Below, piece by piece: positions 11,223-15,053 of a stretch of 64,000 bases of DNA. The first letter of the stretch is position 1; the number at the start of each line of letters is the position of its first letter. Both the position numbers and the translations under genes were made by a program. Source of the DNA: Escherichia coli O157:H7 (GTDB lineage Bacteria > Pseudomonadota > Gammaproteobacteria > Enterobacterales > Enterobacteriaceae); NCBI RefSeq assembly GCF_013167455.1, contig NZ_CP038328.1; one strand, 5' to 3'. The notes beneath the pieces were generated by a model, which did not search any database, was not told the origin of the DNA, and saw nothing but the letters and a program-made list of their open reading frames with translations.

Positions 11223-12239
11223 TTAATCATCCGGCGTCAGTTCGCCGCGCAGGTTTTGGCTCATGGCCTTGCGAATGGTTTCAGTATCCAGTTCCTGGCT
11301 AAGCAGGTAATGCAGTTTGGTTAGCGTGGCTTCTACAGTCATATCTGCACCGCCAATAACGCCAGCATGGGCGAGGGCGTTACCGGTGGCATAACCACCC
11401 ATATTCACTTTACCGGACATACATTGTGTCAGGTTGACCACCACAATACCGCGATCGCTGGCTTCTTGTAATTCCTGCAGGAAGGCTTTGTTTTGTGGCG
11501 CATTACCCACGCCATAGGAGCGCAGAATCAATGCTTTCACCGGTTGGCGCAGAAAATTGCGCACGACGTCAGCAGAAATCCCTGGATAAATCGTCACTAC
11601 GCCAATTGGTTGTGGGGTGATTGGATGTACGATCAATTCCCCTTCACCGTGCGGGGCGGGTGGCGTATTCAAACGACGAATATGGATACCTGCTTCCAGT
11701 AACGGAGGAAGGTTTGGAGAGGCAAACGCATCAAAACCATCGGCATGGGCTTTGGTAGTGCGGTTGCCGCGATACAGTCGGTTATTAAAAAAGAGTGTTA
11801 CTTCGTTGATCGGATAATTCGCCGCAACGTACAACGCATTCAGCAGATTAATTTGTCCGTCAGAGCGTAACTCAGCCAGCGGGATTTGTGACCCTGTCAC
11901 AATGACCGGTTTACCGAGATTTTCGAGCATGAACGACAGCGCAGAGGCGGTATACGCCATCGTGTCGGTGCCGTGCAGAATGACAAAACCATCATAGTCG
12001 TCATAGTGCGCTTTAATATCTTCAGCAATATGCTGCCAGTCTTCCGGCGTCATATCTGAAGAATCCATCAGCGGCGTATATTCATGAATGGTGAAATCTG
12101 GCATCTCCGGGCGATGGAATTCCGGCATCAGCGCCAGTTGGCGTTGTAGATGACCTGACACCGGTATATAACCCTGCTCGGAACGCTGCATCCCGATGGT
12201 CCCGCCCGTGTAGGCAACGTAAATTGATTTCTTTTGCAT
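11223..12239 (-). CDS. ansA: cytoplasmic L-asparaginase I
   Basis: 338-aa ORF MQKKSIYVAYTGGTIGM..., asparaginase type I threonine-rich active-site N-terminus. Confidence 0.9.
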   Translation of the reverse strand: MQKKSIYVAYTGGTIGMQRSEQGYIPVSGHLQRQLALMPEFHRPEMPDFTIHEYTPLMDSSDMTPEDWQHIAEDIKAHYDDYDGFVILHGTDTMAYTASALSFMLENLGKPVIVTGSQIPLAELRSDGQINLLNALYVAANYPINEVTLFFNNRLYRGNRTTKAHADGFDAFASPNLPPLLEAGIHIRRLNTPPAPHGEGELIVHPITPQPIGVVTIYPGISADVVRNFLRQPVKALILRSYGVGNAPQNKAFLQELQEASDRGIVVVNLTQCMSGKVNMGGYATGNALAHAGVIGGADMTVEATLTKLHYLLSQELDTETIRKAMSQNLRGELTPDD

Positions 12240-12319
12240 GATATTGATATGAATGATATCGAAAGAGCAAAAGTATATACGTGAGGGGCAGCGAGCGCAC
12301 CTGGATACTCTGTGGATAT

Positions 12320-12368
12320 GAGAAAAGTCCGGCAGGACGGAGGGATTAGTGTCCCGCCGGAGAAAAGT
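12320..12368 (-). terminator. intrinsic terminator of the inserted ORF: imperfect hairpin CCGGCGGGAC/GTCCTGCCGG followed by ACTTTTCTC on the minus strand
   Basis: Stem-loop plus T-rich tail immediately after the stop of ORF 12371..13093. Confidence 0.5.
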
Positions 12369-12370
12369 GG

Positions 12371-13093
12371 TTAATCCTGCAACGCATAGGTTACGGTCGT
12401 GACTACGCGTACCGTTTTATTAATCGCCGTAGGATCATCTTCATCACTGCCACTGGCAAAGATCTGGAATACGCCTTGTGAGGCATCGCTAATTGACCCC
12501 ACCTGGCTACCTGAGTCCGTTGCAAATTGTAGTGCGGCGTTGCGTGCATCTTTGGTGGCGGCAGCAATCATCTCAGCGCGCAGTGCGCCAATACCATTAA
12601 AGCGATAGGCGACTTTGCTCTCAGCGATAGCGCCATCCGTAGCGACTTGCAGTTCGTTTAATTTCGCGACGACTTTTTCGACAGCAGCAACATTATGGGT
12701 TTTTATCGTCACTGACCCGTCTGCGTTATAGCGTGGCATTGTGGGATCATCTTTCAGATAAAAGGAATCTGTTCGCTTGCTTGTCCATTGGCCCAGAATT
12801 ATCTCTTTCTCGTTAATCCCCTGAGCATTGAGTTCGGCAACAATTTTTTTCTGCGCTTCTTCCAGTTTCGGGAACAGTTCGCCGGGAACATTACCCTTAA
12901 AGTTAATCGCAATTGTTAATTCCGCCGTATCTGCGCGAACTTCTTTTTCAGAAAGCCCGCGCACATTGACATAACGGTTGTTGGTTTTTAAATGTTTAAC
13001 ACCATCGCCAACAAAATAACCACAGGCGCTAATCCCCAGTCCGAGGACGATAGCGGCAATTAAAGAGGGGGCCTTGTTCACTGATGACTCCAT
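12371..13093 (-). CDS. putative lipoprotein, SIMPL/DUF541-like (periplasmic 26-kDa antigen family); not in the K-12 gene order as I recall it
   Basis: 241 codons from the ATG complement at 13091-13093 (MESSVNKAPSLIAAIVLGLGISACGYF...); signal peptide with lipobox ISAC; the longer ORF-track form begins at a GTG. Confidence 0.65.
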   Translation of the reverse strand: MESSVNKAPSLIAAIVLGLGISACGYFVGDGVKHLKTNNRYVNVRGLSEKEVRADTAELTIAINFKGNVPGELFPKLEEAQKKIVAELNAQGINEKEIILGQWTSKRTDSFYLKDDPTMPRYNADGSVTIKTHNVAAVEKVVAKLNELQVATDGAIAESKVAYRFNGIGALRAEMIAAATKDARNAALQFATDSGSQVGSISDASQGVFQIFASGSDEDDPTAINKTVRVVTTVTYALQD

Positions 13094-13196
13094 ATCAGAT
13101 GCTAAATGAGCAAGGGAATGTAGTGGAGAGAGGGAGTGAAAGACAGTCCGATTCAGGAGTGTGGCCGACAGCATATCGGCCACATTTTTGCAGGAT

Positions 13197-15053
13197 TTAA
13201 CGCACGTTGGCGCAGGTCAGGCAAAACGCATAACGGTTTTGTGGGTCGTTAAACGCCGCCAGCTTGTCGCTTTCACTTTTAACGGTAGAGGCTACCGAGG
13301 CCAGCGGTGCAGGTAACATGGCCTGGAACGCATCTGGCAACATTGCCCGGACAGAACCAGACATGTTGTCCATCACTTTGTCGAAGAAGGTCGGTTCATC
13401 AACGTAGTATTCCAGATGCCACTGTTTCGCTTTTGCCAGCTCTGCTGCTTTGGCGACCGCATCATCGAAATCCCCGAGACTATCGACCAGCCCGTTAGCT
13501 TTTGCGTCCTGACCGGTCCAGACGTGGCCCTGGGCGATTTTATCAATCTGCTCCGGCGTCGAATGACGCGCATCAGCAACCAGCGTGATAAAGCGTTTAT
13601 AGCCATTCTCAATGCTTAACTGCATCATCTGCTGCGCTTCCGGCGGCAGTGCCCTGGTGATAGAAACATCCGCCAGCGGTGAAGTTGAGACACCATCAGT
13701 ATGAACACCAATCGAATCCAGACTATTTTCTACGGTGGTGATCACGCCGAAGATACCAATAGAACCGGTCAGGGTGCTGGGGTTAGCCACAATGTAATTA
13801 GCTGGCGTGGAAATCCAGTAACCACCAGATGCCGCCATGCCGCCCATCGATACAACCACAGGCTTACCCGCTGCCCGGGCTGCTGCCAGTTCAGCGCGAA
13901 TCACTTCAGACGCGGTAACGCTGCCGCCTGGGCTATTAACACGCAGGACAATCGCTTTCACTTTCGGGTCAAGGCGAGCGTCGCGGATTTGTGCCGCAGT
14001 GGTATCACCGCCAACATTCCCCTGAGTTTCCTCGCCATCCATAATTGCGCCATTAGCGAAGACGACACCGATGCTGTCACCGGTATCTGCCGGCGTTTTC
14101 AATGCGTAATCGTAATAACTGATGGCGCGATAATTTTTATCAGCCTTACTCCAGCCGAACTCTTTGGTCAGTGCTTTTTCGATTTCCGCACTCGATGCCA
14201 GTGCATCGACCAGCTTGTTTTCCAGTGCATATTTCGCGGTATCGCCACCGGTTTTGGTTAAACCCTCAAGCAACCCTTGCGCGCCAGGGAATACCTGCTG
14301 AGCAGGGATCTGCCGGTTAGCGGCAACAGTATTCAGATAGTTTTGCCACAGCTCACCAATCCAGCGGCTGTCAGCTTCGCGGGCTGCCGGTGACATGTCA
14401 TCACGAATAAACGGTTCAACGGCAGATTTATACGTACCCACGCGGAACACATGGGTGGAAACTTTCAGCTTATCCAGCAACGATTTGTAGTACAGACCGT
14501 TGGTAGCAAAACCGTGCAAATCCACCACGCCTTGCGGTGACAGCCAAATTTTATTGGCGAAACTGGCGAGATAATATTGCCCCTGGCTGTAGTTCTCGCC
14601 AACGGCATAAACCGGTTTCCCGCTGTCACGAAACTCTTTCAGGGCTTTGCCGATGTACTGCATAGACGGTTGGTCGCCGCCTGCGAAGTTTTTCAGATCC
14701 ATCACGATACCGGTGATATTGCGGTCATCCTTCGCCTGGCGAATGGTATTGACGATATCAAACAGTGAGTTTTCCTGCAGACGATCGGAACTGGCACCAA
14801 GTAGTTGGCGGCTTAATTTACTAAACCGCTGAGAACTGTCGGGTTTATCGACGATCACACCAGAAATGTCCAGCAGCAGTGCACCACGACTGGCCGTTTC
14901 TTTCGAATCACCACCACTGACCTGCATCCAGATCCCCACACCAACCAGCACGAGAAAAATAAAGAACAGGTTAAGTACCATTTCACGGACGAAATTCAGC
15001 AGACGCCACGTCCATTTAAAAAATCCGGCAATAAATCGCCAAAGGGTTCGCAT
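13197..15053 (-). CDS. sppA: signal peptide peptidase A (protease IV)
   Basis: 618 codons from [21 protein letters not shown]; tandem S49 peptidase domains. Confidence 0.9.

Follow-up and report, generated by a model that had tools for sequence, protein, structure and literature searches.

The sppA-ansA spacer of Escherichia coli O157:H7 contains a gene, ECs_2473/Z2800, that we consider an ordinary, vertically inherited chromosomal gene, older than the divergence of Escherichia and lost many times in Enterobacteriaceae (with a probability of roughly 0.8). Its 236-amino-acid product consists of one N-terminal hydrophobic helix leading directly into a SIMPL alpha/beta domain. The gene, which lies in a stretch of 64,000 nucleotides (hereafter the window), is already known: RefSeq lists it with the same family name, and it appears in transcriptome and phosphoproteome tables of O157:H7. 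What is added here is a corrected start codon, evidence that the label "lipoprotein" rests on a non-conserved cysteine, and evidence for an old enterobacterial gene lost by K-12, not an O157-specific island.

The sppA-ansA spacer and the start codon of the SIMPL gene

The gene, its ribosome-binding site and its two neighbours are arranged as follows.

11223-12239, minus strand: ansA (asparaginase I), downstream neighbour; open reading frame, PGAP and Sakai annotation
12371-13081, minus strand: coding sequence of the SIMPL-domain protein, 236 amino acids, GTG start, TAA stop; ECs_2473, Z2800, WP_001030441.1
13088-13091, minus strand: Shine-Dalgarno sequence GGAG, 6 nt upstream of the GTG start; seen in the sequence, with AAGGAG or AAGGAA and no ATG in relatives
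13197-15053, minus strand: sppA (signal peptide peptidase, protease IV), upstream neighbour; open reading frame, PGAP and Sakai annotation on identical DNA

The end of the sppA stop codon (13197) and the ansA ATG (12239) are 957 bp apart (12240-13196, minus strand), in agreement with the gap of about 0.95 kb given in a preliminary description of this DNA. The 241-codon ORF on the same strand that had been placed in this gap is present, with 240 amino acids plus the stop when read from the ATG at 13093; the frame ends at 12371 and encodes 270 amino acids from the farthest GTG and 236 from the GTG at 13081. Both PGAP and the Sakai annotation take this last codon as the start. It is kept in six of seven orthologues of the gene, and E. 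albertii, E. whittamii, Escherichia sp. E1V33 and E. fergusonii retain it behind AAGGAG or AAGGAA at the ribosome-binding site, without the ATG. Judged from these sequences, the start codon conserved in this gene is the GTG at 13081, which lies 12 nt past the ATG chosen earlier, and that ATG (13091-13093) is an E. coli-only variant within the Shine-Dalgarno site. The earlier statement that the gene has no canonical Shine-Dalgarno sequence can be traced to this choice of the wrong start codon: GGAG precedes the GTG by 6 nt, and it was overlooked because the ATG at 13093 sits inside the ribosome-binding site.

The DNA of the window at this locus is 100% identical to that of O157:H7 genomes, where the gene is labelled ECs_2473, "putative lipoprotein" (Sakai), Z2800 (EDL933) and WP_001030441.1, "SIMPL domain-containing protein" (PGAP). 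The suggestion that it might be undescribed content has to be withdrawn, as it carries these annotations and as ECs_2473 was already listed as absent from MG1655 in a 2016 microarray paper on Sakai. Its GC content had been said to look native, which is roughly the case, the value of 48.0% being slightly low compared with 50.8-52.1% in the flanking genes and 49.3% in the whole window.

A two-allele polymorphism in Escherichia coli

A megablast search found the SIMPL gene in 943 of 5426 complete E. coli genomes (17.4%). Among these carriers, 347 have at least 99% identity, those sampled being O157:H7 (100%), O145 and relatives, and 596, including O25b:H4-ST131, have about 97.8%. A match to the K-12-type spacer of 166 bp, covering at least 80% of it, was obtained in 4481 genomes; here the sppA-ansA gap measures 166 bp and the gene is absent. 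Thus the preliminary description was right in calling the gene an addition relative to K-12, and the outcome that it had named as its refutation, an ordinary core gene present in K-12 and in most E. coli genomes, did not materialize. The spacer is a clean two-allele polymorphism in E. coli, and about 83% of the sequenced E. coli, K-12 included, have lost the SIMPL gene.

The two alleles differ by the following segment, the upstream edge of which lies next to a hairpin.

12319-13159, minus strand: segment of 841 bp found only in the long allele; alignment blocks and allele counts
13160-13184, minus strand: hairpin 13 nt past the sppA stop, with an 11-bp stem, a 3-nt loop and no U-tract; folding

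In the short allele these 841 bp are replaced by 52 bp that include a T-run completing an intrinsic terminator of sppA, and the junction is identical in all seven short alleles that were read, two of them from species representatives and five from the E. coli collection. When the alleles were aligned globally with cheap gap extension, this 52-bp filler was spread over spurious short matches, the only reliable aligned blocks between long and short alleles being the hairpin and a 78-bp block next to ansA. Since the 52 bp cannot be aligned to the long allele, "one simple deletion" is only an approximation of the event that separates the two.

Distribution beyond E. coli and ancestry

The order sppA-SIMPL-ansA is also found in E. 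fergusonii (70% amino acid identity), E. albertii (86-87%), E. whittamii (93%) and Escherichia sp. E1V33 (95%). Moreover, orthologues with 58-68% amino acid identity occupy the same site on short metagenomic contigs whose flanks are Citrobacter-, Kosakonia- and Superficieibacter-like. These contigs led us to drop the idea that the gene was gained at the base of Escherichia; they point to an old gene of Enterobacteriaceae with a patchy distribution, which was repeatedly lost. In a scan of Enterobacterales that started from the N-terminus of ansA, with one genome per species, the gap could be measured at 109 of 120 loci. All but a few of the gaps were between 51 and 270 bp, with no SIMPL gene in any of those (86 bp in Salmonella and about 55 bp in Citrobacter, for example), and the two gaps of 957 bp were those holding the gene. 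In Citrobacter youngae ATCC 29220 the site is filled with other cargo.

Synonymous divergence was compared between the SIMPL gene and sppA in the same genomes. For the SIMPL gene dS is 0.58 versus E. whittamii, 1.25 versus E. albertii and 1.61 versus E. fergusonii, and the corresponding values for sppA are 0.54, 0.70 and 1.66; the two genes thus agree for E. whittamii and E. fergusonii, and the SIMPL gene is about twice as diverged for E. albertii. The fact that its dS tracks that of sppA fits vertical descent, to which it can be objected that recombination across the conserved flanks could produce the patchiness seen outside Escherichia.

The preliminary description had ranked the gene as a candidate for strain-specific content, that is, horizontal cargo recently inserted into the sppA-ansA spacer of O157:H7. 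Its absence from K-12 and from 83% of the complete E. coli genomes, a GC content slightly below that of the flanks and the other cargo in Citrobacter youngae ATCC 29220 would suit such an islet. However, five Escherichia species and three further lineages of enterics have the gene at this position, and its divergence scales with that of its flanks. The alleles of O157 and ST131 differ by a dS of 0.075, a value in keeping with ordinary divergence within E. coli. A scan of the region found neither an integrase nor flanking repeats above chance. A 10-nt inverted repeat at 12373-12382 and 13188-13197 was rejected as a signature of mobility, about 0.5 such pairs being expected per 1 kb and the repeat not being conserved in E. 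albertii. Searches of the region with PADLOC (0 families) and against PHROG (best match with E=0.063, none significant) speak likewise against a mobile islet, and the idea of an anti-phage defence or phage-derived gene was rejected on the same results. A recent islet is therefore very improbable, and an O-island type of insertion is refuted by the synteny across Escherichia and other enterics; the qualification "strain-specific" does not apply to a gene that 943 E. coli genomes, four other Escherichia species and other enterics carry at one site.

Repeated loss across Enterobacteriaceae might equally suggest a decaying, non-functional ORF that by chance has stayed open in some lineages, and occasional damage is indeed seen, namely a 16-amino-acid in-frame deletion in one homologue (P0004) and an IS200/IS605 insertion upstream of the gene in one strain. 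Yet none of the seven orthologues is disrupted, and dN/dS stays at 0.03-0.14 at divergences that reach dS values above 1.5, a pattern in the coding sequences that shows purifying selection on the gene. Furthermore, 19 columns are invariant in 67 homologues, and both a peptide and a regulated transcript have been detected in published data (see below). Selection and expression together refute decay, which we regard as scarcely credible.

Transcription signals and expression

A second structure was found by folding at the downstream end of the gene.

12322-12361, minus strand: terminator-like element past the stop of the SIMPL gene, with an 11-bp stem and a 12-nt loop (12328-12361), followed by UUUUCU; folding

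The centroid structure of this element has -21.2 kcal/mol (z=-3.18) and that of the hairpin behind sppA -17.8 kcal/mol (z=-3.94). A strict pattern scan for terminators had missed both, because one is without a T-run and the loop of the other, with 12 nt, exceeds the limit of 8 nt; folding recovered both. The sppA hairpin also marks the left edge of the DNA specific to the long allele, and K-12-type genomes and E. fergusonii have a T-run behind the equivalent stem. The statement that sppA has no obvious terminator was thus half right: a strong hairpin does follow its stop codon by 13 nt, and in this allele it has no U-tract. A simple pattern scan of the sppA-ansA gap detected no sigma-70-like promoter, and an Rfam search of the region returned no RNA family.

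Two published data sets show that the gene is expressed. In a Sakai microarray, the ECs2473 transcript was up 11.66-fold on lettuce cell-wall polysaccharide, the same condition raising sppA 4.17-fold and ansA 3.87-fold. In the phosphotyrosine proteome of EHEC, the peptide TNnRyVNVR is assigned to Z2800 with an FDR below 1% (PMC3681748, supplement). This tryptic peptide, TNNRYVNVR, corresponds to residues 33-41 of the 236-amino-acid protein, and Y68 of the old 267-amino-acid annotation is Y37 in the present numbering.

12971-12973, minus strand: codon of Tyr37, reported phosphotyrosine site of Z2800; PMC3681748, numbering checked

Co-transcription with sppA, which the preliminary description had proposed, is plausible, because the sppA hairpin lacks a U-tract, no promoter was found and sppA, ECs2473 and ansA are induced together. 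The induction of ECs2473 is about three times that of sppA, so a promoter of its own, missed by the simple scan, may also exist. In the scheme that we propose, the SIMPL gene of the long allele would be transcribed largely by read-through from sppA, the hairpin of which has lost its U-tract, and transcription would stop at the gene's own hairpin and U-tract.

A SIMPL domain of the Campylobacter jejuni type

The assignment to the SIMPL/DUF541 family that had been made from the N-terminal pattern was confirmed by Pfam, where PF04402 matches with an i-Evalue of 4.1e-18 and 66.8 bits over model positions 1-205 of 205; the same family is present in all 120 homologues listed.

12386-12970, minus strand: SIMPL (PF04402) domain, residues 38-232; Pfam, PDB and Foldseek matches

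Phmmer against the PDB retrieved 10AM (E=1.6e-27) and 7C50 (E=6.4e-26). An AlphaFold2 model built with 67 homologues (pLDDT 89.3) shows a single continuous helix, residues 4-33, that leads directly into the alpha/beta domain. Foldseek matched this model to 7C50 (E=2.9e-18) and to BP26 (4HVZ, E=6.8e-13), with no other meaningful match, so that AlphaFold2 and Foldseek together show the two-lobed alpha/beta fold of the solved SIMPL members. The 19 invariant columns of the 67 homologues include R36, V38, V40, G42, E45, Q202, G203 and R225, and the near-invariant ones include D189, S190 and G191. The protein also has a helix ending in G-[YFW]-F-[IV]-G, an R-x-V-x-V-[KR]-G motif and a C-terminal DSGS...ASQG block, features that place it in the same subfamily as the SIMPL-like protein of Campylobacter jejuni.

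The gene neighbourhoods of two distant homologues have no neighbour in common, and the context thus gives no clue to function. Likewise, the literature yielded no known function for any member of the subfamily, "SIMPL" being a common acronym that mostly leads to unrelated papers.

Membrane anchor or lipoprotein

Two overlapping features define the N-terminus.

13007-13069, minus strand: N-terminal hydrophobic helix, residues 5-25, PSLIAAIVLGLGISACGYFVG, ending in G-[YFW]-F-[IV]-G; AlphaFold2, conservation and hydrophobicity
13022-13024, minus strand: codon of Cys20 in the candidate lipobox I-S-A-C; alignment column

The motif LGLGISAC and the pattern VNVRGLSEKEVRADTAELTIAIN, from which a lipobox and a SIMPL/BP26-type N-terminus had been proposed, are both found in the ORF. 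Checked by eye, the E. coli N-terminus, MNKAPSLIAAIVLGLGISAC, obeys the lipobox rule [LVI][ASTVI][GAS]C: K3 lies in the n-region, and a hydrophobic stretch free of charges leads to I-S-A-C20. If the protein were a true lipoprotein, signal peptidase II would cut before Cys20, the cysteine would be lipidated and the SIMPL domain would be periplasmic, the Gly at +2 sorting it to the outer membrane. Besides the lipobox itself, this reading has in its favour the Sakai label "putative lipoprotein", the deposition of the C. jejuni homologue as "Periplasmic protein" and the fact that the SIMPL relatives BP26 and YggE are periplasmic. We nevertheless consider it somewhat unlikely. Only five of the 67 homologues, namely four Escherichia sequences and a Citrobacter-like one (P0007), have a cysteine in this column (A 22, G 13, M 12, S 9, L 5, C 5, T 1), and in E. 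fergusonii the motif reads I-T-V-C, with a non-canonical Val at -1. The best-conserved part of the N-terminus, a nearly invariant G-[YFW]-F-[IV]-G-x-G, falls directly past the would-be cleavage site, where it extends the hydrophobic helix, and three K/R residues are found within the next 15 residues.

Because the cysteine is so rare, the hydrophobic motif behind it so nearly invariant and the helix of the model continuous, we infer that the N-terminus across the family is a predicted uncleaved membrane helix, which would serve as an inner-membrane anchor and keep the SIMPL domain close against the membrane surface. In that case Escherichia and one Citrobacter-like lineage would have acquired the lipobox-like cysteine recently. 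Going by its lack of conservation across homologues, lipidation is possible in E. coli and cannot be required for the function of the family.

An anchor of this kind leaves the side of the membrane to be decided, and the short N-tail may be periplasmic and the SIMPL domain cytoplasmic. This alternative, which we consider less likely than not, would make the labels "periplasmic" and "lipoprotein" wrong for the whole subfamily. The eukaryotic SIMPL protein is intracellular, which suits it, whereas the characterised bacterial SIMPL proteins are exported. In 113 homologues the N-tail has on average 0.88 K+R, versus 2.90 in the 15 residues past the helix; in 110 of the 113 the C-side count is the higher of the two, and 24 of the 113 have no K/R before the helix. 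By the positive-inside rule, such an excess argues for a cytoplasmic domain, so that the charge distribution even favours this orientation, which we present as an alternative and not as a finding: part of the positive charge, R36 and R41, belongs to the first beta-strand of the folded domain, and the start codons of the metagenomic homologues may be wrong. The phosphorylation of Tyr37, just past the helix, in EHEC also agrees with a cytoplasmic location, but it had to be downgraded as proof of cytoplasmic exposure since the same study lists phosphotyrosine on the outer-membrane adhesin Iha (PMC3681748).

Proposed history and significance

As a proposed history, a SIMPL gene would already have stood between sppA and ansA before the divergence of Escherichia. 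Enterobacteriaceae would have lost it many times, one of the losses falling in the lineage that led to K-12 and to about 83% of the sequenced E. coli, and E. coli as a species is caught midway through one such loss. The alleles themselves allow another view, in which the gene-less haplotype may keep the ancestral T-run of the terminator and the gene-bearing one may have lost it before the split of E. coli and E. albertii. The polymorphism would then be an old presence/absence polymorphism or the product of introgression, not a recent deletion. That two such deeply diverged haplotypes exist at sppA-ansA and that, in addition, the SIMPL domain faces the cytoplasm across the subfamily is, taken as one proposition, rather improbable. 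The orientation of the domain and the unexpectedly deep divergence of the two haplotypes are nonetheless the points worth attention, the significance of the gene otherwise going little beyond bookkeeping, with nothing to suggest a new kind of system. By analogy with its paralogue YggE, the protein probably has a non-enzymatic role connected with membrane or envelope stress, and it may, by analogy only, be dispensable under most conditions. Two major pathogenic lineages, O157:H7 and ST131, carry the gene, laboratory strains lack it and lettuce cell-wall material induces it, which makes it a possible cheap knockout target in studies of plant colonisation or envelope stress.

Comparison with known SIMPL proteins

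The closest solved relative is the SIMPL-like protein of C. jejuni (7C50/7C51 and 10AM). The 10AM entry, named "Periplasmic protein", contains the full-length protein of 231 amino acids in 9 chains, and its alignment spans residues 9-236 of the window protein, from the N-terminal hydrophobic segment through the last residue, with the R-x-V-x-V-K/R-G motif and the FAxDSxSxxGxIxxASQG block in common. For 7C50, Foldseek gives a TM of 0.80 (target-normalised) with 32% identity. The C. jejuni protein differs in its distant host (Campylobacterota) and in having no Cys at the lipobox position. As its own function is not known to us either, the match gives a fold and not a function.

Brucella BP26/Omp28 (4HVZ) belongs to the same Pfam family and has the SIMPL fold (Foldseek probability 1.00), at 19% identity and with a TM of only 0.47-0.50; phmmer against the PDB did not find it with E up to 1. 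BP26 is soluble and periplasmic; its signal peptide is cleaved off and the protein assembles into a large oligomer. In contrast, the window protein keeps its N-terminal membrane helix.

YggE, another SIMPL-domain protein, is the product of the E. coli core gene yggE, has a classical cleaved signal peptide and is represented by the NCBIfam equivalog NF008299 ("oxidative stress defense protein"). The window protein has a weak local match to it (E=8e-4, residues 38-201) that reaches 18.9 bits versus a curated cut-off of 249, and was for this reason classified as a paralogue of YggE, orthology being rejected. Lastly, PF04402, which the window protein matches over the full model, takes its name from eukaryotic SIMPL/IRAK1BP1, an intracellular signalling adaptor in mammals that has no membrane anchor.

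Two haplotypes of the sppA-ansA spacer in E. coli

The sequence following the sppA stop was compared between the window and loci from other genomes.

Window 13150-13196 against L002, L004 and L010: sequence past the sppA stop

The T-run after the sppA hairpin is kept in the short, gene-less E. coli allele, in E. fergusonii and in the contig with Citrobacter-like flanks, and it is missing from all the alleles of E. coli, Escherichia sp. E1V33, E. whittamii and E. albertii that bear the SIMPL gene. At the other end of the spacer, the 84 bp adjoining ansA share only 88-90% identity between the long and the short E. coli alleles. Taken together, these two observations, which involve few sites, make the short haplotype look older, or more foreign, than would be expected if it had arisen recently by deletion from the present long allele.

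An inverted repeat lies at the two stop codons of the long allele.

Window 12373-12382 and 13188-13197: perfect 10-nt inverted repeat, AATCCTGCAA / TTGCAGGATT

Its arms lie exactly at the SIMPL stop (12373-12382) and at the sppA stop (13188-13197), and about 0.5 pairs of perfect 10-nt inverted repeats per 1 kb are expected by chance. The repeat is absent from E. albertii, and its arms do not coincide with the indel boundaries.

Altered alleles, survey outliers and the neighboring ydjE

Individual E. coli strains carry modified versions of the SIMPL locus. In strain E400634 (L142:1434-1892), the stretch separating sppA from the SIMPL gene is interrupted, near the sppA hairpin, by an IS200/IS605 tnpA. 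P0004, a 220-aa E. coli allele of the SIMPL protein, has an in-frame deletion of 16 aa (residues 153-168, AESKVAYRFNGIGALR) and may be damaged. When the E. coli genome collection was searched with the sppA-ansA region, 2 of 5425 matches fell on records labeled as plasmids, and a single genome out of 5426 gave no match whatever; mislabeled replicons or a larger deletion may account for these outliers.

In O157:H7 genomes, an MFS transporter gene lies beyond ansA, downstream of pncA.

Window ~9200-10480; L001:220-1479; L007:1-608: ydjE, MFS transporter gene

According to the annotation of O157:H7 genomes, rather than of the window itself, the ydjE adjoining pncA is a pseudogene lacking its N-terminus, and in strain Z869 an IS3-family transposase is annotated directly past it.

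Other cargo at the sppA-ansA site

Comparison of the spacers revealed that in other species the cargo of this site differs from the SIMPL gene.

L040:981-3200; L089; L097: sppA-ansA spacers with other cargo

The 2.2-kb spacer of Citrobacter youngae ATCC 29220 contains two long minus-strand ORFs of 384 and 414 aa, whose sequences, judged by eye, resemble a regulator of the GlxA/AraC type and a transporter with multiple membrane passes. The spacer measures 749 bp in a Klebsiella MAG and 403 bp, with internal repeats, in Raoultella ornithinolytica. The sppA-ansA spacer may be a spot of recurrent insertion and deletion.
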